Source: Candidatus Poribacteria bacterium
GTDB lineage: Bacteria; Poribacteria; WGA-4E; PCPOR2b
DNA length: 64,000 nt
Assembly: GCA_965208675.1 (NCBI GenBank)
Contig: OZ242351.1
Coordinates: 3,488,001-3,552,000 of the forward strand
Reading direction: 5' to 3'
Shown here: one piece after another, positions 22,222-35,785 of the stretch
Layout of the letters: the number at the start of each line of letters is the position of its first letter
How positions within the stretch are numbered: position 1 is the stretch's first letter
The notes under the pieces: model-generated
Told to the model about the DNA's origin: nothing
The model's database searches: none
What the model saw: only the letters and a program-made list of their open reading frames with translations
Made by a program: the position numbers and the translations under genes

Positions 22222-22242
22222 GGAGCCATCCTATATCTTCTT

Positions 22243-22380
22243 ATAGGAAAACCAGTAATTTTTATACATTGCGGAAAGATCGGTTGCCTAACCGAGCCGC
22301 TGTTTATGCAGACCGTCGTAGATACGGTGAGAAACCGCACCTACCGAAACTTGTGTAGTATGAATGGTATTGACAATAGT
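22243..22380. repeat. About 138-bp MITE/REPIN-like element, copy 2 (inverted relative to 14742-14877)
   Basis: Contains CGGTTGCCTAACCG and CGGTGAGAAACCGCACCTACC. The outer arms match those of copy 1. Confidence 0.7.
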
Positions 22381-22416: not shown

Positions 22417-23022
22417 TCATTTTGCACGGCGGATGCGGTCCACTGTTCTCCTCAAACTTGGGGATGCCGCGGCAGCTCGTTCTAGATTCCAAGCATCGCG
22501 TACAAATTGGCTCAGGCAACTGTTATATTCGGGCCCCACAGTAGTAGTAACCGCTCTTCGCGGTGGAACGAGCTGGTCTCGCAAACTCTTCTTGTTGCTT
22601 CTTCGGGCAAGCGATACTAGGAATTCTTTGGGTTGAGGAATATCATCTGGTGTGCTAGGAATTCGAGTTGCTGGTATAGACAAGAACGCGGCTAGAGCAT
22701 CCCGATCCGCCATAATCCAAGATTCGATTTCCATCACCGCCACGCGAAGGAAAAATCCGGGATTTAGCGGGGCTCTCACCCAAGATTGGATTAGTTCCGG
22801 GGCACAAGTTTGTGGAGAGTCTAGGTCTGTGAACATTAAAACATAAGGCGGCGCCGCCGCTGATCGATTGAGCTCGTTGGCGCGCCTTTGAAGGTAAGAC
22901 TTTCCTTGATAAGTGTTTGGGATTCTGAGATCAATTTCAATGCCTAAATGCTTGAGAATTTTAGTCGAGACCACATCGCTTAGGCTATCCTCAACCGCAA
23001 GGATTACGCTGTTTAGGCTCAT
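22417..23022 (-). CDS. DUF4276-like TOPRIM-fold protein
   Basis: LAVEDSLS, FTDLD, VAVMEIESWIMAD, PKEFL and ASPSL motifs. Coupled to the ATPase by a TAATG overlap. Confidence 0.75.
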   Translation of the reverse strand: MSLNSVILAVEDSLSDVVSTKILKHLGIEIDLRIPNTYQGKSYLQRRANELNRSAAAPPYVLMFTDLDSPQTCAPELIQSWVRAPLNPGFFLRVAVMEIESWIMADRDALAAFLSIPATRIPSTPDDIPQPKEFLVSLARRSNKKSLRDQLVPPRRAVTTTVGPEYNSCLSQFVRDAWNLERAAAASPSLRRTVDRIRRAK

Positions 23023-24173
23023 TACAGTAAATTCAACTGTTCAAGATTTTCAGGTTTGGTTCTCGAAAGCACAACTTCAGCGACAGTCAGCCCGTTCCTC
23101 AGTAGTGATTCTACGGCAGAAATGTCGGAGGCTCTTTTTACCTCTGTGCCTTCTTTGGCGGGCGTGAGCAGCAGTACTTCCGTACCGTCAATTCCCTGTT
23201 CCGTGAGAAGAGCGTCGCTGTGTGTACTCACGAAGACCTGCCGCCGCCGCGTTCGTTGCATTTTAGATATTAAAGCGGCGATGCGTGACACAATGCCGGC
23301 GTTTAATGACAGTTCAGGTTCCTCCAATAGAAGAATTGACTCACTTTCTAGAAGTGTCCAGAGTAATCCGAGAAGGCGCAGCGTCCCGTCCGAAAATTGA
23401 TCTTCGCGTTGCCAACCTGCCTTTGGACGCCAGTGAGAATAGAGTGCTTGAAAATGCGGGCGGCCGGTAGTTTCATCTCGAACAAATTCCAATTGCTCAA
23501 GTTGGGGCACGGCAAAATTTAAGGCCTGTTCAATTTTTTTCAGTCTCGACCGGCGAGTTTTTTCCGGGACACTTGCAACCCTTTCAAGAAACCCCTGCCC
23601 AAATGGATCGTCTTCAACAATCTTCCCTTGAATGGAATCGGAAAACCGCAAGAGTTGAGGAACTAAATGCTGGTATCTGATAGCTTGCAGGAAACGCGCT
23701 ATTTCCCGAAATTTGGCATTGACATTAATCTGTTCAAGAAAGGTCTGTGTCAGTCGATCTGGATCTGCCTCGTCTGGTTTATCCGGTCTATTGAGGATTC
23801 GTTCATTATTTCTCCACACGCGCTCGTAGCTGAGGAGGGGACGGCGATATCCCCGAGTTTCTTGGCGAAATCCGAGCCCATATTTCCAAGTAGCGGAGGA
23901 GTCCGAATCCTCCGCAAGGTGTATTTCAATTGCCACCTCCGGATCGCGCCGTGCCGCCAAGCTACGGATTTTGGAGAGACCGCCCCGGTCTTTGACGGCT
24001 TTCTGAAAACCGCCGCCCTCCGCTTTTACGATATCTCGAAGAAAGCGAAAAATGTCGAGAAGGTTGGATTTCCCGGACGCATTCGCGCCTACAATAAACT
24101 GACGTTCGCTAAGATGTACATCAATCTGTTTAAAATTACGCCAGTTTTTCGCGATGAGGCGGCTGATTATCAT
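23022..24173 (-). CDS. ABC-type (AAA_21-like) ATPase
   Basis: NWRNF, Walker A GANASGKSN, signature FSDGT, Walker B LLLEEPE and H-loop STHS. No membrane partner. Confidence 0.9.
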   Translation of the reverse strand: MIISRLIAKNWRNFKQIDVHLSERQFIVGANASGKSNLLDIFRFLRDIVKAEGGGFQKAVKDRGGLSKIRSLAARRDPEVAIEIHLAEDSDSSATWKYGLGFRQETRGYRRPLLSYERVWRNNERILNRPDKPDEADPDRLTQTFLEQINVNAKFREIARFLQAIRYQHLVPQLLRFSDSIQGKIVEDDPFGQGFLERVASVPEKTRRSRLKKIEQALNFAVPQLEQLEFVRDETTGRPHFQALYSHWRPKAGWQREDQFSDGTLRLLGLLWTLLESESILLLEEPELSLNAGIVSRIAALISKMQRTRRRQVFVSTHSDALLTEQGIDGTEVLLLTPAKEGTEVKRASDISAVESLLRNGLTVAEVVLSRTKPENLEQLNLL

Positions 24174-24272
24174 AGCGGTAACTCCCGATACGTCTGAGAA
24201 TCAGATTTTTTCTTTGAGTTGTCCTGCTTCGGTTGGATTTTGTGTTGCTAACGGCGCCAATTAATATCGTAA

Positions 24273-24301
24273 AGTATGTCACATAAACATTGCGTTGTCA
24301 A
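24273..24301 (-). promoter_or_regulatory. Putative sigma70 promoter for the ATPase-DUF4276 pair
   Basis: The minus strand reads TTGACA-N17-CATACT with a TG extension. Confidence 0.55.
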
Positions 24302-24367
24302 TTGAGTCTTCGGCAACCACTTGCCATTTTAAACGTCCGCGTTCCGAGGGCGTCTGTCACAAAACCC

Positions 24368-25162
24368 CTAACTCCATTTCGGATAGTCGCGTATTCGTAG
24401 ATCTTCGCGCCAATCGGACATATTATCGCCTTTTCGGCCGCGGCTACGGACTTTGACAGCGTTCAGCGACTGATTACGCGCCCAAACGGTGCCCATTTGT
24501 TTGACAAACAAGGGTACCGAATCCTCACGGCACTGATCTCGAATCTCGGCGACCCACGCCTCATTCATGGGTCTCGCACCGGGTCCTGATTCGCCTCCGA
24601 CAATCACCCAATGTATACCGTCTAATCTGAGTTGACCGAGCCGCCCGAGCAAGGGTTCCAGTGACAGGAATTTGAGTTGCGCTTCGGTGCCTCGCAGACA
24701 ATCTATCCGGAAGGTGTATTCTGCGCTTTCCACACTTACCCCCATCCAGACATTCGGCAGCCAGCGCAGTTTAGGGCTCAATTCGGCAAGGCGTTCCGCT
24801 CGTTTGGTGAGAACTTGAAATTGGTGCCGGTCAGCCCGCCTCATAACGTCAAAGACTTCTTGGATGTATTCTAACGGCACGTCCTCATGGAACAGATCGC
24901 TCATGGAGTTTACAAAAATCAAGCGAGGTTTTTTCCATTTTAAAGGCTGATTCAAAACGCCGGGCACACGTTGGACGCGATTCGTCCACCGAGGTCCCGT
25001 TTTCGTCATTTTCGCAATCCCCTCGTATGCCAAACCCTTCTGAGCGAATCGCGCGGCGATACGTTCGGCATAGCAGAAACGACAGCCTTCAGACACGCGG
25101 CTGCAGCCGCGCACCGGGTTCCAGGTTGATTCCGTCCACTCTATATTGGATTGCGTAACCAT
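24368..25162 (-). CDS. DUF5131 / phage Gp37-Gp68 family three-Cys (radical-SAM-like) protein
   Basis: SNIEWTESTWNPVRGCSRVSEGCRFCYA, FVNSMSDLFH, QVLTKR, FLSLEPLL, WVIVGGESG and FVKQMG. Confidence 0.92.
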   Translation of the reverse strand: MVTQSNIEWTESTWNPVRGCSRVSEGCRFCYAERIAARFAQKGLAYEGIAKMTKTGPRWTNRVQRVPGVLNQPLKWKKPRLIFVNSMSDLFHEDVPLEYIQEVFDVMRRADRHQFQVLTKRAERLAELSPKLRWLPNVWMGVSVESAEYTFRIDCLRGTEAQLKFLSLEPLLGRLGQLRLDGIHWVIVGGESGPGARPMNEAWVAEIRDQCREDSVPLFVKQMGTVWARNQSLNAVKVRSRGRKGDNMSDWREDLRIRDYPKWS

Positions 25163-25338
25163 TACTGTTCACTTTCTCAAGATGTCTTGCGCAATTTTTA
25201 CAGCAGTTGAGACACGCCTTGAGCTAAAGGCTAATATTGTCGATTTCGTATTGTCATGCGCGGTGTTCAACCCACTCCTAGGCTTGCATGCTGGTTGCCG
25301 ATGGCGTTTCTACTGTTGCGTGATGCGATTAGCCTGCG

Positions 25339-25485
25339 TTAGCCTATTTTGCTTAGCTCGCTTTTCGGCGCTGGGGCGATGAGCATAGCGCTCAGGGTAT
25401 TGACCCAGAAACTGTTACGATTCAGGCGGTTAATTCCGGCTTGGATTATTTTCAGGTGTTCGACGACTTTTTCGGTGCCGTGCAT
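25339..25485 (-). pseudogene. Truncated 48-aa relic of a small membrane defence-effector-like gene
   Basis: Hand translation gives MHGTEKVVEHLKIIQAGINRLNRNSFWVNTLSAMLIAPAPKSELSKIG. The first ~35 aa resemble the HLE.IQ.vI.R...NSF..K.W N-terminus of a family I recall next to TIR/DUF1863 genes. Confidence 0.5.
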
Positions 25486-25500
25486 GGGAGTGCTGTACTT

Positions 25501-25542
25501 TGTCTGAATCGCGGATTGCCGCGGATTAAGGGATTACACGGA
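25501..25542. repeat. Cassette-boundary repeat copy 1 (half element)
   Basis: TGTCTGAATCGCGGATTGCCGCGGA followed 10 nt later by ACACGGA. Confidence 0.9.
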
Positions 25543-25618
25543 GGGGATTCGATTGAAATGCCAATGTGTACATGGCACGTTGACGTCTTTGATGAGGCTC
25601 GGTATTATTATTTCGCCT

Positions 25619-26842
25619 CTAGGCTTCATCGCTATCTTGCAAGGATTTTGCGGCGAAAATGGTTAAGCGCAATTCCTCTCCGAAGAGTTCGTATACGGGG
25701 GTTGTGCCGCTAAGTTCCTGGCTTTCATTGAGTATGATGCCGACGCCTTCGCCCCGGCGCTCAAGAAAGTGCCGCCTCTTTACTTGCCTGCCTATATTGT
25801 CGTCAAGCGTAGTTTCAGAAAGTAGGCGTGTGAGGAGTTCGTTTCGGGTTGCTTGGTTGTAAGGTAAATCGTCCACCGTTAAGGTATTTGCCAATGTCCC
25901 CGGCGAATAGAGTTCCAGCCGGTCTGTGAACATGAACAACCGAATCTTCGAGCCGGCTTTTGAATAATCCCTGTGGACAACCGCATTTACGATTGCTTCA
26001 AAAACAGCTCTCATGCTGTATTGTGAACGTTCTATTCTGCCAACGTCCTTGCGGGCTGAGACTTGGTTGTATCTTTCAACAAATTTGAATGCGTCCACAA
26101 CCTGTTGGCCGAGCGGTCCCCGAAAATCCTTTGCGTCAATCTGGTAGTTCGCATCCTTGACCACACCGTTATAAAAAACGGCTTGGATGAAGCTGTTATA
26201 GAGGAAATCGTCGGGGCTGTCATGACACATCAACAGGCCGGCTACCGAGGCGCGGCAATTTTGACCGTCTTTGACCAGCAAGCGCCGTTTCAGTAGCAGG
26301 TCTTCTACATTCTCCCGATCAGTTGCTCCCGCCGTGATAAATCGCCGATACAGCTTTTCCCTTAACGTGTCTCTGTGAGTGTTCGGTACGAACTGCTTAT
26401 CAAAAGAGATTCTATGTGCCTGCGAACGGCTTTGCGACAACCGCCCCAACTGCTCGGTGGTCATTTCTCTTGTGCTGCCGTCCGCGCGAATTAAATAACG
26501 TCCGGAAGATTTATGTACAAACAAGCTTGGCGGCACATCTATTTTCAACAGATTCTTATCGTCGATCCGCAGTTTTTCTGTAACAACGTACACCATAGGG
26601 TCAACGTTGTCGCTGCATATTTCAACCACTGTTTTCTCTGTCCTGTCGAGATCGTGGCGGTCAATACCGACAATTTCGCTGTCATCGCCAACGCCGATCA
26701 GTATCACCCCACCATTCGCGTTGGCAAACGCAACGATTTCATCGGCGAGCCCCTCTCTGTGAGGCAACTCTCTTTTGAATTCAACCGTTGCGTCTTCTCC
26801 CAGATATATTTTTTCAGTGAGTTCGGTTAAGCTGTCAAACAT
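25619..26842 (-). CDS. Schlafen/AlbA_2 domain + HATPase_c_4 protein
   Basis: GEDATVEFKRE, IVAFANANGGVILIGVGD, EAIVNAVVHRDYS, DRLELYSPG, TRNELL and ERRGEGV. Confidence 0.9.
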   Translation of the reverse strand: MFDSLTELTEKIYLGEDATVEFKRELPHREGLADEIVAFANANGGVILIGVGDDSEIVGIDRHDLDRTEKTVVEICSDNVDPMVYVVTEKLRIDDKNLLKIDVPPSLFVHKSSGRYLIRADGSTREMTTEQLGRLSQSRSQAHRISFDKQFVPNTHRDTLREKLYRRFITAGATDRENVEDLLLKRRLLVKDGQNCRASVAGLLMCHDSPDDFLYNSFIQAVFYNGVVKDANYQIDAKDFRGPLGQQVVDAFKFVERYNQVSARKDVGRIERSQYSMRAVFEAIVNAVVHRDYSKAGSKIRLFMFTDRLELYSPGTLANTLTVDDLPYNQATRNELLTRLLSETTLDDNIGRQVKRRHFLERRGEGVGIILNESQELSGTTPVYELFGEELRLTIFAAKSLQDSDEA

Positions 26843-26868
26843 TGGTCATTCTCAAATCAATATACAAA

Positions 26869-26913
26869 TGTCTGAATCGCGGATTGCCGCGGAATTACCG
26901 GAAAAACACGGAT
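26869..26913. repeat. Cassette-boundary repeat copy 2 (half element)
   Basis: Identical 25-nt core TGTCTGAATCGCGGATTGCCGCGGA, then ACACGGAT. Confidence 0.9.
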
Positions 26914-26961
26914 AAAATCCCCGGTTTTCCTATCGCTGCGAATTTTTACTTCCCTTGCGGT

Positions 26962-27522
26962 CTAGTGTGTTTTTCCCCCGGATATAAGCGAAAGTGCTTT
27001 AAGAAATGAGTGCACGCCTGCAATTTCTAGCTTACTGATTTCCCAGTCATATTCTTTGGCGAATTTCTTAATGTGTTTGCGTTTGGTGCGCTTCCGTTGT
27101 TGGAAAATGTAATGCACTTTCGCGGCGATCGAGAGCGTATTAAAATCGCCCGCCAATGGGAGGCTGTTTAACGTGTCAAGCGCTCGCTTCCAATCGGTGT
27201 ATCCATCCTCTTTTTTAATCTCACCCATTACCGCTTCGCTGTCGGATGTCCAACAATAGGTATGGCGCCGGGTCTCGCCAAAGACATTTCGGTCGGTTGA
27301 AAAAGACTCCGTGACTTCTTTCAGAAAGCGGGCGTGGACGAGAATATCCAGGTTTTCCGCAACCGGACTGCTATAAGGTCCATAGTAGTGCGGCCGGAAA
27401 CCGAGGTCGGTTTTGTTCAATACCGACAGGAAATAGAGTTTCTTTTGGATAGTAGTTCGTCCCCGGAGACTTTTCTCCGCCTCACCCCCGATGACAAGCA
27501 AAATCAGGTCTTGAATGTGCAT
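26962..27522 (-). CDS. YwgA/SocA(Panacea)-like winged-helix protein
   Basis: GRTTIQKKLYFL and FRPHYYGPYS motifs. ATG at 27522 preceded by AAGGAAA. Confidence 0.7.
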   Translation of the reverse strand: MHIQDLILLVIGGEAEKSLRGRTTIQKKLYFLSVLNKTDLGFRPHYYGPYSSPVAENLDILVHARFLKEVTESFSTDRNVFGETRRHTYCWTSDSEAVMGEIKKEDGYTDWKRALDTLNSLPLAGDFNTLSIAAKVHYIFQQRKRTKRKHIKKFAKEYDWEISKLEIAGVHSFLKALSLISGGKTH

Positions 27523-27632
27523 ACGACTGTTTTCCTTTGAGGGACAACACATTTTGATGGCCCCTGTCCGACAAATAGCAAAAGGCTTGAAATTGCTATG
27601 TTTTTTATGTCAGGTATTCACTTTTTTGAAAT

Positions 27633-27721
27633 TGTCTGAATCGCGGATTGCCGCGGATTAACTGATGACACGGATTGAGAATCTGCGTTATCCGCTTCAT
27701 CAGTTTAATCCGTGATTCAGA
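27633..27721. repeat. Cassette-boundary repeat copy 3 (complete palindromic element)
   Basis: Same 25-nt core. Ends TCTGAATCGCGGATT and AATCCGTGATTCAGA are inverted (1 mismatch). Inner TTAACTGATGA pairs with TCATCAGTTTAA. Confidence 0.9.
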
Positions 27722-27849
27722 TGGTTTTTTCCAAGGCGGTCCTCCACAATCGCAAAACATTCAGGTTTTAGGGCGGATGGAATACGCCCAGATTCACTAC
27801 CTTGTACGGTCAAGAATGCCATAAAAACGTTAAGTTTTCAATAAAATCA

Positions 27850-27951
27850 TTAAGCAACTACCCAATCCTCCTTCAATCTGCTTGCCTTCTGCAGTCGCTT
27901 CGCATTATACACGGCGTCGCGATTCCCTCCTGTAAGGTTTAGAACATTAAA
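27850..27951 (-). pseudogene. Relic second copy of the 3' end of the Eco57I-like methyltransferase
   Basis: Translates as FNVLNLTGGNRDAVYNA------KRLQKASRLK, against the MTase C-terminus FDALNLTQGERDAVYEAVIDLVQARLRKAGSLK (30601-30699). Confidence 0.85.
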
Positions 27952-28005
27952 GCTACCTGTGCCAAGGCACAGACATCAGGCTCTCTCTCGGTTATGCCGA
28001 CTAGA

Positions 28006-28449
28006 CTAGGTTGTTTGGCATTTCATTTGCTGAAGAAACGGGAACTCATCGTGCCGAACGTACCGCCATGACTGTGGGACGACAAACTTCGAGAATTGGC
28101 GTCGCAATGTGCTTAGGCTAATGGGAGTTTGGCATTTCCAGATATCTGTAATTTCAAGTGCATAAGCTATAGTCTGTCCCTCAAAATAGGTGTCGAAATC
28201 CCGCTTATTCACGCCTGCTCGATTGCGCACCATGTTCCAAACATCCTCAGGAGCATCACACCACACCTGTCCAACACGAAAGCCTCCGCGCAACTCCATA
28301 ACAGGACTGGACACATAAATGAATACATCACGGTGCCGCATACCCGATGCAATTCGCCGTCGCAGTTCAGCCGTTTTACGGCGCTCAAAAATCAAATTTG
28401 CATAAAGAGGTTTTAGAGAAAGTAGGACGGGTTGCTTTGTGAGATTCAT
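28006..28449 (-). CDS. ASCH (PUA-like) domain protein
   Basis: VLLSLKPLYANLIFERRKTAELRR, FIYVSSP, FDTYFEG and VPQSWRY. The ATG at 28449 overlaps the upstream TGA (ATGA). Confidence 0.88.
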   Translation of the reverse strand: MNLTKQPVLLSLKPLYANLIFERRKTAELRRRIASGMRHRDVFIYVSSPVMELRGGFRVGQVWCDAPEDVWNMVRNRAGVNKRDFDTYFEGQTIAYALEITDIWKCQTPISLSTLRRQFSKFVVPQSWRYVRHDEFPFLQQMKCQTT

Positions 28450-30467
28450 GGCCAATCAGGAAAACCTTTTTGATATAGTTCACGAAAAATCTGTGCAGTT
28501 AGTGTGCATGGGCCTTGTAGTGACGGCTGAGGCTTATTGTTTTTTTTGAATACATCTTTCACCTCATCCAATGAGACGGGTTGTCGAAAGAGAAACGTAT
28601 GCGAAAATTTCAATGCCATGAGTTTCTTCGACGGATCATGGTGGCAAATCTCATAAAGGTCGTCCCATTTCAGAATCCCGAATTTTTTGAATTTTCTGAA
28701 AAGTTCTTTGGGGGTGTCTACTACAACGTCGTCTAGGCGAGATACGGCTATAATTTGGTGTTTATCTCTGCTAACATACCACAAAATCCGAGCTGGGGCT
28801 TTTAACATTTTGTGACGCGTTGCTGAACGATAGTAAACATTATTCCAGAGCAATAGGACTTCAGGATTCCCCCCGAAGAGGTCGTCTGCCGACGCTAGTC
28901 TGTCAATCAGACTAATCGCATAGCCAGCCTGAATTGGTATCAGAAAAAGCCTTTGGGGTGCAGGCTTGAGACTTAGCGGAGAACAACATTGTTCTAGGCC
29001 AAGATCTAACATACACTGATAACTAGATAGACATTCAGGGCGTAGTGCAGCAATCGCAGACAATACTTCCTTCCGACTCTTGCACCGAGAAAAACAGAAT
29101 CTCACGAAACTGCTGTCAAATTTTATAAATCCCAACTCTAACAAGTCTGGTGTCATGCTGAGGGCGACGGAAGAAATTTCGAACTTGACCATATCCAGAT
29201 TTTCCTCAACTGCTTTGGCAATCGTGTCGGCAATGAGAAAGCGGCCGAACAGCAATCTGTCAGCAGAATATATCACTCTTGCCAAAGGTGAACTGAGTAC
29301 TCTATTGAAACTCTTTGTCAGAACTCGGATTCCAATTAATTCATCACGTGACCGTAGCAGTTCACATTCGTAACGATTCGGTTCGGCTAGCAAGGATTCC
29401 AGTTTTACCCTAAATTTCCCCGTCGTTTCATGTTTTTCTACAAATGAAGCAAAGGGAAAGGATGCTAAGTCTTTGGACTCCATGCGTTGCCAACGAAGGC
29501 GAAAGCCTGCAATTCGGTCGGGGACATAGGATTGCTGTTCTGCCAACTCATGCATCCGAATAATCAGGTCGACGGGACTAATCACATCAAGCCCTGTTAG
29601 CTCGGCTATTGCTTTTGACTTTTTCAGTAACGCCCGGTCGCGAGTGACAAATGTGTTTACGCTGGACGCGGCAGCTTTAGCTAAATGTTGAATATCGGAA
29701 TCCTGATTTCGCCTTCCGCGAGGAAGTATTCCACTTAGTAGTTCGGCAATACCTTCTGTTAAATGGACGGGGGATTTAATTTGAGGAAAGTTGTGAGCTC
29801 TGTTATTGGATAGTTTACGTAGTTGTGGATCGTCCTGTCGGTCAATTTCATTGAGCAGCTCGTCCGTAATCCAAAGGCTTAAGGAATCTACTAGGAAATC
29901 GGAGAGGAGCATTTTAGATGGTGTGGTCTTATCACTATCTGGTTCATCAAAATCGAAGAAGATCTGGGCATCAATGATGATGTCCACAGTATCGTCTGAT
30001 GTTCTTGCTTGAAATATCTCTAACTGCTCCTCTTGAGTGAGTGTGAGTTCCCAGGTCGTCAAGCGGTGATTATCCTTTGAACGGCTCGGTTTTTCTCCTA
30101 TGGCCACGAACCCCAATTTGGGCCACATGCGATTTTCCGGGAAATCACGACGACAATTTAGTGTTATAAACTTTTGCGTAACCACCTTACCTCGCAAGTA
30201 ATTAACAAGCTGGGTAGCAACGCCTTTGCCACGATGCTGTTTCGCTACGCAAAGGTGTGTAATTCTGAAATAAATCGGATGGGCTGAGTAGAGAAGATAA
30301 CCCACAAGATTATCGTCATTGCCTATAACTCCAAGTGCGCCTCCTTTATTTAGAAAATCTTGCAGGGCTTCCTTCGGGAGAAAACCGAGCGTTTTACTGT
30401 TCATTTTCATTAGCTCGTCTACGGCATCAAGCCAAGCCGATGTTAGTTTCGAGACTGTTATGTTCAT
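28446..30467 (-). CDS. GNAT acetyltransferase - PIN nuclease - degenerate GNAT - EVE/PUA-like fusion
   Basis: GNAT: ITHLCVAKQHRGKGVA, WPKLGF. PIN: IIIDAQ, LLNEI, DIQHL, FVTRD. C-terminal: LIPIQ...NVYYRS...APARILWYVS. Confidence 0.82.
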   Translation of the reverse strand: MNITVSKLTSAWLDAVDELMKMNSKTLGFLPKEALQDFLNKGGALGVIGNDDNLVGYLLYSAHPIYFRITHLCVAKQHRGKGVATQLVNYLRGKVVTQKFITLNCRRDFPENRMWPKLGFVAIGEKPSRSKDNHRLTTWELTLTQEEQLEIFQARTSDDTVDIIIDAQIFFDFDEPDSDKTTPSKMLLSDFLVDSLSLWITDELLNEIDRQDDPQLRKLSNNRAHNFPQIKSPVHLTEGIAELLSGILPRGRRNQDSDIQHLAKAAASSVNTFVTRDRALLKKSKAIAELTGLDVISPVDLIIRMHELAEQQSYVPDRIAGFRLRWQRMESKDLASFPFASFVEKHETTGKFRVKLESLLAEPNRYECELLRSRDELIGIRVLTKSFNRVLSSPLARVIYSADRLLFGRFLIADTIAKAVEENLDMVKFEISSVALSMTPDLLELGFIKFDSSFVRFCFSRCKSRKEVLSAIAALRPECLSSYQCMLDLGLEQCCSPLSLKPAPQRLFLIPIQAGYAISLIDRLASADDLFGGNPEVLLLWNNVYYRSATRHKMLKAPARILWYVSRDKHQIIAVSRLDDVVVDTPKELFRKFKKFGILKWDDLYEICHHDPSKKLMALKFSHTFLFRQPVSLDEVKDVFKKNNKPQPSLQGPCTLTAQIFRELYQKGFPDWP

Positions 30468-34188: not shown

Positions 34189-34220
34189 GGGGGTGCCTCT
34201 ATGTGAAATGGTCAGTTAGG

Positions 34221-34253
34221 AGAAACCGAGTTTTTTGGAAAAACTCGGTTTCT
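34221..34253. repeat. Perfect 15-bp-stem palindrome in the MTase leader
   Basis: AGAAACCGAGTTTTT-TGG-AAAAACTCGGTTTCT. A degenerate relative lies at about 34322-34355. Confidence 0.85.
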
Positions 34254-34268
34254 GAGTTTGGTTGCGTG

Positions 34269-34302
34269 TTATGAACCTCCTCCTCCTTGGTAAGGAGGGG
34301 GA
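34269..34302. repeat. CC-rich hairpin repeat, copy left of the RAYT
   Basis: TTATGAACCTCC..CCTCCTTGGTAAGGAGGGG. Same-orientation relative at 35587-35626 and a weaker one at 40341-40371. Confidence 0.75.
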
Positions 34303-34399
34303 TGATTGGCGTGTAGTCTAGAGAAATCGAATGCTTCAAGAAATCTCGGTTGTTCTGTTTGAATTTCAGAAACTCATTCCCGTCGGTCGTCGCTTTTTT

Positions 34400-34429
34400 A
34401 TTATACCATTGCAGCTATGGGATTGTCAT
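34400..34429 (-). promoter_or_regulatory. Putative promoter for the methyltransferase
   Basis: The minus strand reads ATGACA-N18-TATAAT with a TGG extension. Confidence 0.5.
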
Positions 34430-34432
34430 TAC

Positions 34433-34605
34433 CGAGGCAAGGATGCCTCTCCCACAGTCAAGTACAGGTTTCATTTGAGCAAAACAGGCTGTGGGAGGGA
34501 AATCCTTTTCCCAATATTCAGGTCAGAATGTCACTACAGTTGAAAATCGTGGCAGGGATGCCTCTCCCACAAGAGCAGCTTCTCCCACAGATAAGCCTTC
34601 TCACA
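34433..34605. repeat. REP/REPIN cluster downstream of the RAYT
   Basis: REP A at 34433-34456 and 34546-34571 (reverse complement GTGGGAGAGGCATCCYTGCCWCG). REP B TGTGGGAGGGAAATCCTTTTCCC at 34490-34512. Short CTCCCACA tails follow. Confidence 0.9.
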
Positions 34606-34613
34606 GAAAACTT

Positions 34614-35105
34614 CTAATCTCCATTCAGGCTGCCTACTACCTCGAATTTACATCGCCAATAAGGGCAGTCTTTTGCTTTTTTGACTAAGCCTTGTCGAAC
34701 GGGGTTATGATAGCAGTAGCGAATAATTTCGTTCAGAGATTCGTCGCGTCGAATGCCGTGGTCATGAAATCCTTCCTTCCATACTGAACCGTGTTCACCT
34801 CGATTTTCGTTAATCTTCCTTGCTGTAAATGCCTTGAGGGAATGCATAATTTTTGGTAAGGTTTGGTTACGACCAAGTTGGATTACTGTGTGGATGTGGT
34901 CGGGCATGACCATGATACAGATCCACTTGATTCTACCATGGGTTTCTAACCATTCAAAAGTTTCAAAGATGATTTGTGCAACATCAGGATTCGAAAGAAT
35001 CGGTTTTCGGTCCAATGTAGAAGTAGTGAGGAGGTAATATGTTCCTGGTATTTCGTATCGTCCCTTCCGTAATTGATGGCTTCCTCGATTTGGAAAACGG
35101 TGCAC
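34614..35105 (-). mobile_element. REP-associated tyrosine transposase (RAYT, Y1 HUH family)
   Basis: LRKGRYEIPGTYYLLTT, HUH motif VMPDHIH, SLKAFTA, VWKEGFHDHGIR and catalytic Tyr region RYCYHNPVR. Flanked on both sides by REPs. Confidence 0.92.
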
Positions 35106-35176
35106 GGGGTTTCCTTTTTATGGGACGGAGTTTATTCTGTCAACAAAATGAGGATAGGTTGGTTCCATTGTCGATT

Positions 35177-35522
35177 ATCGAGGCAGGGATGCCTCTCCCA
35201 CAGGTAAGCTCCCCTCACAAATAAGTACAGGTTTCATCCGTGCCAAATAGTCTGTGTGAGGGAAATCCTTTTCCCGATACTCTGGTTAGAAAGTCTCTAC
35301 TATTGACAATCGAGGCAAGGCTGCCTCTCCCACAGGTTTTTTGGTCGAGATGTGAAAGCTTCCTTGACTCTGTAGATACTGAGGCGGAAAGCCTGTGGGA
35401 GGGAAATCCTTTTCCCGATATTCTGGACAGAATGTCTCTAATACTGAAAATCGAGGCAGGGATGCCTCTCCCACAGGAACAGCCTCTCCCACAAAAACAA
35501 CCTTTCCCACAGGAGCAGCCTT
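35177..35522. repeat. REP/REPIN cluster upstream of the RAYT
   Basis: REP A at 35177-35202, 35309-35334 and 35450-35475. REP B at 35253-35278 and 35394-35419. Tandem partial GCCTCTCCCACA units follow. Confidence 0.9.
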
Positions 35523-35586
35523 CCTTCAGATAGGTTTCTTACCCGCTTTCAAACTACTTGCTTTCTGCTAGCGGGCCTGCACCGGA

Positions 35587-35626
35587 TTATGAACCTCCCC
35601 TAACCCCTCCTTAGTAAGGAGGGGAA
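35587..35626. repeat. CC-rich hairpin repeat, copy right of the RAYT
   Basis: TTATGAACCTCCCCTAACCCCTCCTTAGTAAGGAGGGG. Confidence 0.75.
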
Positions 35627-35785
35627 TAATTCTATTCCCCCTTGGTAAAGATGAGCAAGGCGCAAGTAGCTAAATCGCCTTGCAAGCGTTCGGATTTTGG
35701 TGTATGCTGTCATCGGGTGGGTTGGGTGTTGCGTTTGCACGTACGGAACGGAAATTCTATCAAAAATGCATTAGGAGGTGCAACG

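Follow-up and report, generated by a model that had tools for sequence, protein, structure and literature searches.

Short repeats that stand between bacterial genes are known in several forms (REP/RAYT, BIME, BOX, MITE and attC). REP sequences (repetitive extragenic palindromes) and bacterial interspersed mosaic elements (BIMEs) of enterobacteria stabilise or process polycistronic mRNA. The BOX elements of Streptococcus pneumoniae are modular, MITEs (miniature inverted-repeat transposable elements) have terminal inverted repeats, and attC sites alternate with genes in integron arrays. The repeat described here comes from Poribacteria, uncultivated sponge symbionts with genomes rich in defence systems and TPR-type eukaryote-like proteins. 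It lies in a window of 64,000 nt (G000:C1:3488001-3552000) of a 4.89-Mb single-contig Candidatus Poribacteria genome, G000, where the 25-mer TGTCTGAATCGCGGATTGCCGCGGA occurs in three exact copies, R1, R2 and R3, at 25501, 26869 and 27633, all on the plus strand. An earlier note had read the alternation of genes and repeats as an integron-analogous cassette array. We find that gene gain and loss do occur at the repeat, yet that it belongs with dispersed repeats and not with integron-like cassette systems. With a probability of roughly 0.55, the three 25-mers belong to an interspersed repeat that is lineage-specific and non-coding and serves as a substrate for recombination; it resembles REP, BIME, BOX and MITE elements, without demonstrable membership in any of these families.

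No further copy of the 25-mer is found in the window at up to three mismatches, and 100 shuffles of the window give a mean of 0.00 copies. ACACGGA follows the 25-mer after 10, 12 and 10 nt in R1, R2 and R3, respectively. All three copies are intergenic, i.e., between open reading frames (ORFs), and antisense to genes. Read on the minus, coding strand, each copy ends ...ATTCAGACA and precedes a start codon: R1 lies 15 nt ahead of the ATG of a 48-aa ORF (25485), R2 lies 26 nt ahead of the ATG of a Schlafen gene (26842), and R3 lies 110 nt ahead of the MHIQDL start (27522) of a YwgA-like gene. The MHIQDL start is the one used by homologues in the genomes G001 to G003; the longest ORF starts at 27552, 80 nt from R3. 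The sequence and the ORF list thus bear out the layout given in the earlier note, and they also agree with its remark that only the copy most upstream on the coding strand is palindromic. That copy, R3 (27633-27721), is an 87-bp imperfect palindrome, one arm of which has one extra 10-nt unit; the minus arm is matched by nhmmer at E 0.13. As RNA, R3 folds at -39.3 kcal/mol (z -6.7), and as DNA at -24.7 (z -7.2); R1 and R2 reach only -6.6 and -13.4 kcal/mol, through small local stems. A search of Rfam at E ≤ 10 over 24000-29000 returned chance matches only, to eukaryotic microRNA and snoRNA families.

The window locus was aligned to G001, G002 and G003, three genomes of the same genus, with breakpoints taken as the ends of BLAST alignments, which are accurate to a few nt. 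Breakpoints in gene content fall at or inside the repeat, as the cassette reading had led one to look for. At R1, homology to G001 and G003 stops exactly at the first base (25501), and these genomes carry about 2 kb extra between R1 and the small membrane-protein gene that is intact there and of which the 48-aa ORF is a relic, including a weak extra copy of the repeat ahead of the intact gene. A deletion between two direct copies would result in such a junction at R1. At R2, G001 has a 1.35-kb insert, a truncated AAA_34 gene fragment, about 27 nt into the repeat (breaks at 26895/26908), and homology to G002 stops at the distal edge (26918). At R3, homology to G003 stops 27 nt in (27659) and homology to G001 stops 44 nt in (27676); past these breaks, gene content differs from genome to genome, G001 having TIR and ThsB-TIR genes. 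G002 has no R3, and a gene with HD and HD_assoc_2 domains (L122:10587-11957) lies directly upstream of its YwgA-like gene. The YwgA-like gene is without a partner in G000 because this HD-domain gene has been replaced at the repeat, and not because genes move singly, as had been supposed. Other breaks in the same 18 kb, at 22222/24322, 27524 and 30600, are away from the repeat.

Four more junctions were found where other repeat clusters of G000 were compared with G002. Three breaks fall 24, 26 and 18 nt into copies of the repeat (1208714, 1812316 and 4718223, respectively), and a fourth falls at the start of a copy (4718698). The content between conserved copies differs between the two genomes, and in the cluster designated E the order of the cassettes differs as well. 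A 555-bp repeat-GxxExxY-repeat unit is duplicated at a non-adjacent position, and its edges are the edges of the repeat. The cleanest case is at 1.208 Mb, where G000 has a ParE toxin-antitoxin pair between two copies that share 24 identical nt; in G002 the pair is missing and a single hybrid copy stands there. Judged from the two sequences, the ParE locus shows recombination of core with core, in a direction that the comparison does not give. In metagenome contigs (runs X1, X5, X6 and X7), depth peaks at the repeats. Contig joints, e.g., 26853->27631 and 25527->27631, link copies of the repeat, and such joints are indistinguishable from paralogous or stacked copies.

Junctions of this kind are also what an integron-analogous cassette system would give. 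In such a system, the 24-25-nt core would be the crossover site of a site-specific recombinase encoded elsewhere in the genome, and genes with one core would be excised as circles and reintegrated at other cores. The ParE pair between two cores versus the single core of G002, the different content and order between conserved repeats in G000 and G002, and the duplication of a repeat-gene-repeat unit at a non-adjacent position all agree with it. The same signature, however, is produced by an unrelated repeat. A palindromic repeat at 34271-34303 and 35590-35630 of the window brackets a 1.3-kb block with a Y1 transposase gene (34307-35607), and at this place G001 lacks the block and has just one copy of the palindromic repeat. 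Since an unrelated repeat shows it too, the repeat-insert-repeat signature belongs to short repeats in these genomes generally, which argues for general repeat-mediated recombination. Moreover, in 119 other loci neither the Schlafen gene nor the YwgA-like gene was seen to move with the repeat studied here. For these reasons, and for others that concern the enzyme and the structure of the repeat, we regard a cassette system of this type as improbable.

The repeat is about 42-50 nt long and has a sharp head, TG|TCTGAAT, after which come three to five units of about 10 nt in tandem (CGCGGATTnn). From 428 copies, in 119 loci, G000 and one array of genome G040, the consensus is TTG|TCTGAATCGCGGATT a.CgCGGATT Ac.CGGATt.... 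Its information content is zero immediately 5' of the TTG|TCTGAAT head and decays gradually in the 3' direction. The units are reckoned to be direct repeats because a small stem formed by CGCGG and CCGCG is not kept in variants. A 42-nt block is taken as the conserved part because many metagenome contigs, from four runs, match just 25501-25542 and have loose ends at 25500 and 25542. Within G000, mean pairwise identity is 0.906 in the 25-nt core versus 0.596 in the distal part. The half elements, which had been thought to be scars, hold the best-conserved part and are not scars. Variants of the repeat are specific to an array or a genome. The far better conservation of the core and the array- or genome-specific variants speak for a cassette system, as the same is true of sedentary chromosomal integrons.

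Copies of the repeat occur singly, in head-to-tail stacks of up to five, or as inverted pairs that make palindromes of 80-200 nt. Where termini lie within 300 nt of each other, the arrangements are RR in 94 cases, FR in 45, FF in 40 and RF in 8. The inverted pairs include 31 palindromic units of 78-210 nt with TG...CA ends (TGTCTGAAT...ATTCAGACA). One form, an inverted unit of 87-89 nt, immediately follows an Eco57I/PglX-like methyltransferase gene in five or more species, and R3 of the window is one such unit; it occupies the space between the stop of that gene and the purine-rich leader of the next. Units like R3 are also present at loci L004, L025, L041 and L073. The layout of stop, palindrome and start and the asymmetric extra unit again resemble what a cassette system would have, but most copies in G000 are unable to form a hairpin.

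The palindrome could alternatively act at the level of RNA, as a stem-loop between cistrons through which polycistronic mRNA is stabilised or processed, with the halves as remnants in 5' untranslated regions. The strong fold of R3 and the persistence of the 87-89-nt unit in five species, between the methyltransferase stop and the leader of the next gene, are what such a role would predict. RNAalifold, however, finds a compensatory change in only 1 of 28 pairs of the palindrome and an unfavourable covariation term, and the half copies barely fold. In addition, the T-rich tract is 5' of the hairpin and not 3', so the hairpin is not a terminator. An RNA element is therefore considered very unlikely.

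In G000, profile searches with nhmmer give 26 hits at E ≤ 0.001, in six clusters at about 0.47, 1.208, 1.809-1.815, 3.209, 3.5135-3.5157 (the window) and 4.718-4.725 Mb. Almost all sequence records with the repeat motif are titled Candidatus Poribacteria and come from sponge metagenomes. The 23-mer, at up to three mismatches, is present in 30 of 41 relatives. The exact 15-nt head TCTGAATCRCGGATT is present in 147 of the 176 genomes of the phylum and is confined to three families, in which it is found in 26/28, 110/112 and 10/11 genomes; a fourth family (0/7) and seven further families (0/17) do not have it. A reversed-pattern control gave 0 matches in each of the 176 genomes. Positive genomes have from 1 to about 200 copies of the head, with more than 3,784 matches in the 147 genomes, and in many complete genomes the copies are distributed along the chromosome, on both strands. 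A single viral contig in the entire IMG/VR collection has the motif. Single matches to the 23-nt pattern were also seen in chromosomes labelled Latescibacterota by their submitters and in a contig labelled Bacteroidia (L027, L040, L043 and L028). Scatter over the genome regardless of gene class and orientation, which the earlier note named as the mark of an ordinary REP, is thus largely what is found outside the genus; it is not what is found in G000, where there are six clusters, uniformly antisense. Solitary, scattered copies in either orientation, which are many elsewhere, also speak against a cassette system.

With respect to orientation, the head generally faces the nearest gene. Every strong copy in G000 is antisense to its co-directional genes, and for 8 of 25 copies the start of a substantial gene follows after 10-51 nt. 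In the phylum, 184 copies from the 119 loci divide as follows: the orientation is antisense to both neighbours in 76 cases, sense to both in 39 and mixed in 36; another 23 copies overlap an ORF of 90 aa or longer, and the last 10 have a gene on just one side. Outside the window, genes were called by ORF heuristics, and kin genomes are not independent of one another. An array of 35 kb in G040 has 107 hits, with plus copies after each stop and stacks of minus copies before the next start. The orientation of the repeat agrees with the sign of the local GC skew in four of the six G000 clusters, which is uninformative on replication-strand bias.

These data bear on a third possibility, namely that the repeat is a cis-regulatory array in which three to five direct units, spaced by about one helical turn, bind a poribacterial regulator or insulator of accessory and defence genes. 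The periodicity of about 10 nt, the invariance of the head across three families, the position of the head 10-51 nt before eight substantial genes in G000, and a perfect TTGACA-17-TATAAT about 15 nt after the last copy in the G040 spacers would all be accounted for. Operators, however, would not be expected directly after stop codons in the sense orientation, as are 39 of the 184 copies, or overlapping ORFs, as are 23. Stacks of up to five copies, and a density of 107 hits in 35 kb, are far more than operators would need. In the window, the distance from repeat to ATG is too short to hold a promoter, no sigma-70-like promoter is seen at the repeats, and no regulator gene is consistently nearby. 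A cis-regulatory array of this kind therefore seems unlikely.

Some further observations concern the arrays and their genomes. The G040 array (L125-L127, G040:C2:8400-43300) separates paralogous Uma2 genes, members of a 300-aa family and IS4-like transposases (IS, insertion sequence). The 300-aa family is weakly like Rpn nucleases (E 3e-6, below the cut-off), and the spacers hold other repeat modules besides the TTGACA-17-TATAAT promoter. The cumulative GC skew of G000 has its minimum at about 3.27 Mb and its maximum at about 4.79 Mb, which implies either replichores that are very unequal or an assembly that is rearranged or misjoined.

The genes next to the repeat were surveyed with Pfam in a sample of 130 of the 203 eligible repeat-adjacent ORFs. 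The sampled ORFs match 175 Pfam families. Of the 130, 16 are TPR proteins, versus 5 of 130 non-adjacent ORFs, and 6 have Eco57I domains. By BLAST, 16 of the 119 loci have Eco57I/PglX-like ORFs (19 in all) and 26 have TPR ORFs (39 in all). The repeat thus shows an enrichment near TPR and type IIG genes and is confined to no gene class. TPR proteins are the gene type that is commonest beside it, with 26 of the 39 ORFs adjacent. In G000, genes of the clusters include FRG plus TPR proteins, an SNF2/PLD helicase, PhyH and a Schlafen gene. Four G000 TPR proteins (1812804-1814672, 4722576-4724978, 4721098-4721952 and 1209821-1210489) have in common a conserved stretch of about 60 aa at the C-terminus, and two of the four have an N-terminal FRG domain.

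A dedicated enzyme was sought in several ways. The best match to the integron integrase model TIGR02249 in the whole genome scores 41 bits versus a cut-off of 265 and is a Xer-like protein at 1.12 Mb. Tyrosine recombinases (PF00589) number four in the genome, at 1.12, 1.78, 2.43 and 3.08 Mb; none is in the window, and all are at least 29 kb from any cluster. The genome has no serine recombinase. attC boxes (RYYYAAC and GTTRRRY, 45-150 nt apart) are absent from R1, R2 and R3 in a scan of 25300-27900, and the sole pair in that segment is inside the coding region of the Schlafen gene (26779-26832). The earlier statement that the locus has neither a tyrosine recombinase nor an attC consensus is correct, and it extends to the absence of an integron integrase from the rest of the genome. 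The lack of IntI, of a serine recombinase, of a tyrosine recombinase within 29 kb of an array and of the R'' and R' boxes of attC speaks against a cassette system. Of the integron-like array, then, the clustering, the antisense orientation and proximity to starts in G000 and the breakpoints at the repeat are upheld, but there is no integrase, attC site or adjacent recombinase to go with them. That the head is instead the site of a recombinase unrelated to integron integrases and confined to the three families, by which single genes or pairs of genes with one head would be cut out and reinserted at other heads, with the defence and TPR islands built by an independent cassette system, likewise appears to us unlikely.

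Particular enzyme families were considered as partners as well. Neither the GxxExxY nor the RAYT-type Y1 genes that the earlier note had put forward for co-occurrence, nor Rpn, co-vary with the repeat. Rpn/Transposase_31 has no match in G000 to G003 or in G040 and 14 matches in the repeat-free genome G004. GxxExxY genes are repeat-adjacent in 5 of 5 cases, but they occur in 79 of the 176 genomes, are absent from G040 and are present in families that do not have the repeat; GxxExxY is cargo and not the enzyme. Y1_Tnp has four matches in the genome, none of them near an nhmmer hit of the TCTGAAT repeat. The Y1 transposase gene of the window (34752-35039, minus strand; of the IS200 or REP-associated tyrosine transposase, RAYT, type) has a different repeat, GAGGCAGGGATGCCTCTCCCACAG, on its flanks, in five copies or more. 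IS4-like (G040) and IS3-like (L064) elements that lie in arrays have termini unrelated to the repeat and were rejected as its parents. No recurrent gene family or autonomous element was found among the ORFs enclosed by head-out pairs in the 119 loci.

We return to the reading that is preferred here, a dispersed repeat that acts as a substrate for recombination. The most economical explanation is ordinary homologous or slippage-type recombination between short identical repeats, with no dedicated integron-like machine, as follows. The repeat would multiply mainly locally, by tandem duplication and unequal crossing-over within the spacers of accessory islands. Given its conservation, the invariant 15-25-nt head is probably recognised by some protein conserved in the three poribacterial families. 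Directly repeated heads are the crossover points, a step that is shown by comparison of genomes and the enzymology of which we infer. Crossing-over of head with head deletes, duplicates, replaces and reshuffles the intervening genes, and the gene-repeat-gene-repeat layout of the window results.

Several points weigh against this explanation. For a neutral selfish repeat, it is unusual to have a 15-nt head that does not vary across three families; such a head implies a factor acting in trans, which was not found. An identity of 24 nt is short for RecA-dependent recombination, and the crossovers fall repeatedly at the end of the core, as a site-specific enzyme would also give. The antisense orientation in G000, with 8 of 25 copies at 10-51 nt before starts, would fit a cis-regulatory role as well. 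No target-site duplication is visible in the 14-nt flanks of the 31 inverted-pair units. Finally, an empty-site comparison at the solitary copy at 3.209 Mb (G000, G003 and G006) gave no clean empty site; in G000 the spacer there is taken up by several repeat families, and in G003 and G006 by the remnant of a nucleotidyltransferase.

Table 1. Copies of the repeat and adjacent genes in the window (window coordinates).
Feature	Position	Strand	Evidence or remark
R1, half element: 25-nt core and two more units, ending ACACGGA	25501..25542	+	Exact 25-mer; nhmmer E 1.4e-14
R2, half element, 26 nt upstream of Schlafen start	26869..26918	+	Exact 25-mer; nhmmer E 6e-12
R3, inverted pair, head-out, inner ends abutting	27633..27721	.	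Plus arm 27633-27680, minus arm to 27721
48-aa relic, N-terminal fragment of small membrane-protein gene	25339..25485	-	Gene intact in G001 and G003
Schlafen/AlbA_2 + HATPase_c_4 gene, 407 aa, between R2 and R1	25619..26842	-	Pfam (PF04326 AlbA_2 + HATPase_c_4)
YwgA-like gene, 186 aa from MHIQDL start, between R3 and R2	26962..27522	-	Sub-threshold DarG matches
40-aa ORF, last codons within the palindrome	27700..27822	-	Tentative methyltransferase remnant

The genes around the window copies are listed in Table 1. The 48-aa ORF was rightly called a relic, as it matches the N-terminus of the intact 137-aa gene of G001 (72% identity over 39 aa, E 4e-17). The Schlafen label also holds on the Pfam domains. 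A paralogue of the Schlafen gene in the cluster designated A, with 72% nucleotide identity, is located after a weak copy of the repeat. In G001 (L120:14491-15770), the AAA_34 (strawberry-notch-like) N-terminal fragment abuts a 30-nt R2 core and is in frame through this core into the Schlafen gene, giving a chimeric ORF of 849 aa. The YwgA-like label is on less firm ground, its support being sub-threshold matches to the C-terminal part of DarG. The YwgA-like allele of G002 is 76% identical, versus about 90% for its neighbours. The 40-aa ORF may, tentatively, be what is left of the 3' end of an Eco57I/PglX-like methyltransferase gene: its region has 77% DNA similarity over 102 nt to the sequence past the stop of the cluster E paralogue, and the protein match covers 11 aa only (E 0.2).

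The setting of the locus in a defence island, proposed in the earlier note, is sound; the island has HEC-01A/B, PDC-M11A/B, PDC-M41B/DUF5131, a type IIG restriction enzyme-methyltransferase and HKD plus Snf2 genes. G000, G001 and G003 all have the HEC-01A/B pair (AAA_21 ATPase and DUF4276; window 22417-24173). G002 has in its place two other small genes that look TIR-like and Fic-like by eye, with no family search, and the breakpoints of this replacement (22222/24322) are away from the TCTGAAT repeat. The G001 to G003 genomes have several independent repeat families. An element of about 140 nt at window 22242-22380 is absent from the same site in G001 and G003, has several copies elsewhere in G001 to G003, most of them in G003, and looks like a MITE-type insertion. 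Short hairpin repeats at 34219-34254 and 35592-35630 have dozens of near-identical copies in G001 to G003, some of them in regular arrays about 115 nt apart.

The repeat marks sites at which genes are swapped between close species. It is a handle for mapping variable islands and for explaining assembly breaks, and equally for finding the protein that recognises the unusually conserved 15-25-nt head. If that protein is a recombinase, the repeat would represent a second, independent invention of cassette-style gene capture. If it is not, the repeat would be a clear example of how ordinary short repeats mimic the layout of an integron.

The comparison with known systems can be summarized as follows. 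Like REP/BIME-RAYT systems, the poribacterial repeat is short, intergenic and multi-copy, occurs singly, in tandem and in clusters of alternating orientation, is a substrate for rearrangement, and forms clusters in spacers between convergent or co-directional genes. It differs in that its core is a run of direct decamers, whereas REP is a palindrome headed by GTAG; in that no Y1/RAYT gene is flanked by it; and in that its head is conserved across three families, whereas a REP is conserved within one species or genus. Like BOX of S. pneumoniae, boxA-(boxB)n-boxC, it is modular, with a variable number of internal tandem units, lies between genes near starts and has no transposase known to be its own; the sequences, however, are unrelated, the poribacterial units are of about 10 nt versus 45 nt, and the phylum is different. 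With MITEs it shares inverted-pair units of 78-210 nt with TG...CA termini, which amount to terminal inverted repeats in 31 units. Unlike MITEs, it has no evident target-site duplication in those 31 units, solo arms and head-to-tail stacks predominate, and two nearby IS elements have unrelated terminal repeats. With attC arrays, both the sedentary type of the VCR repeats and the CALINs, that is, clusters of attC sites lacking integron integrases, it shares the one-orientation alternation of gene and site (in G000), array-specific variants, and gain and loss at the site; its palindromic form is attC-like in length and in its position between a stop and the next start. It departs from them in having no IntI and no RYYYAAC/GTTRRRY boxes, in the mostly non-palindromic halves of G000 and in the singles scattered in both orientations elsewhere. 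Titles and abstract openings in the literature yielded nothing on repeats in Poribacteria. What is new in this comparison is a modular repeat made of a head and decamers, conserved at the level of families, which mimics the layout of an integron within defence islands.

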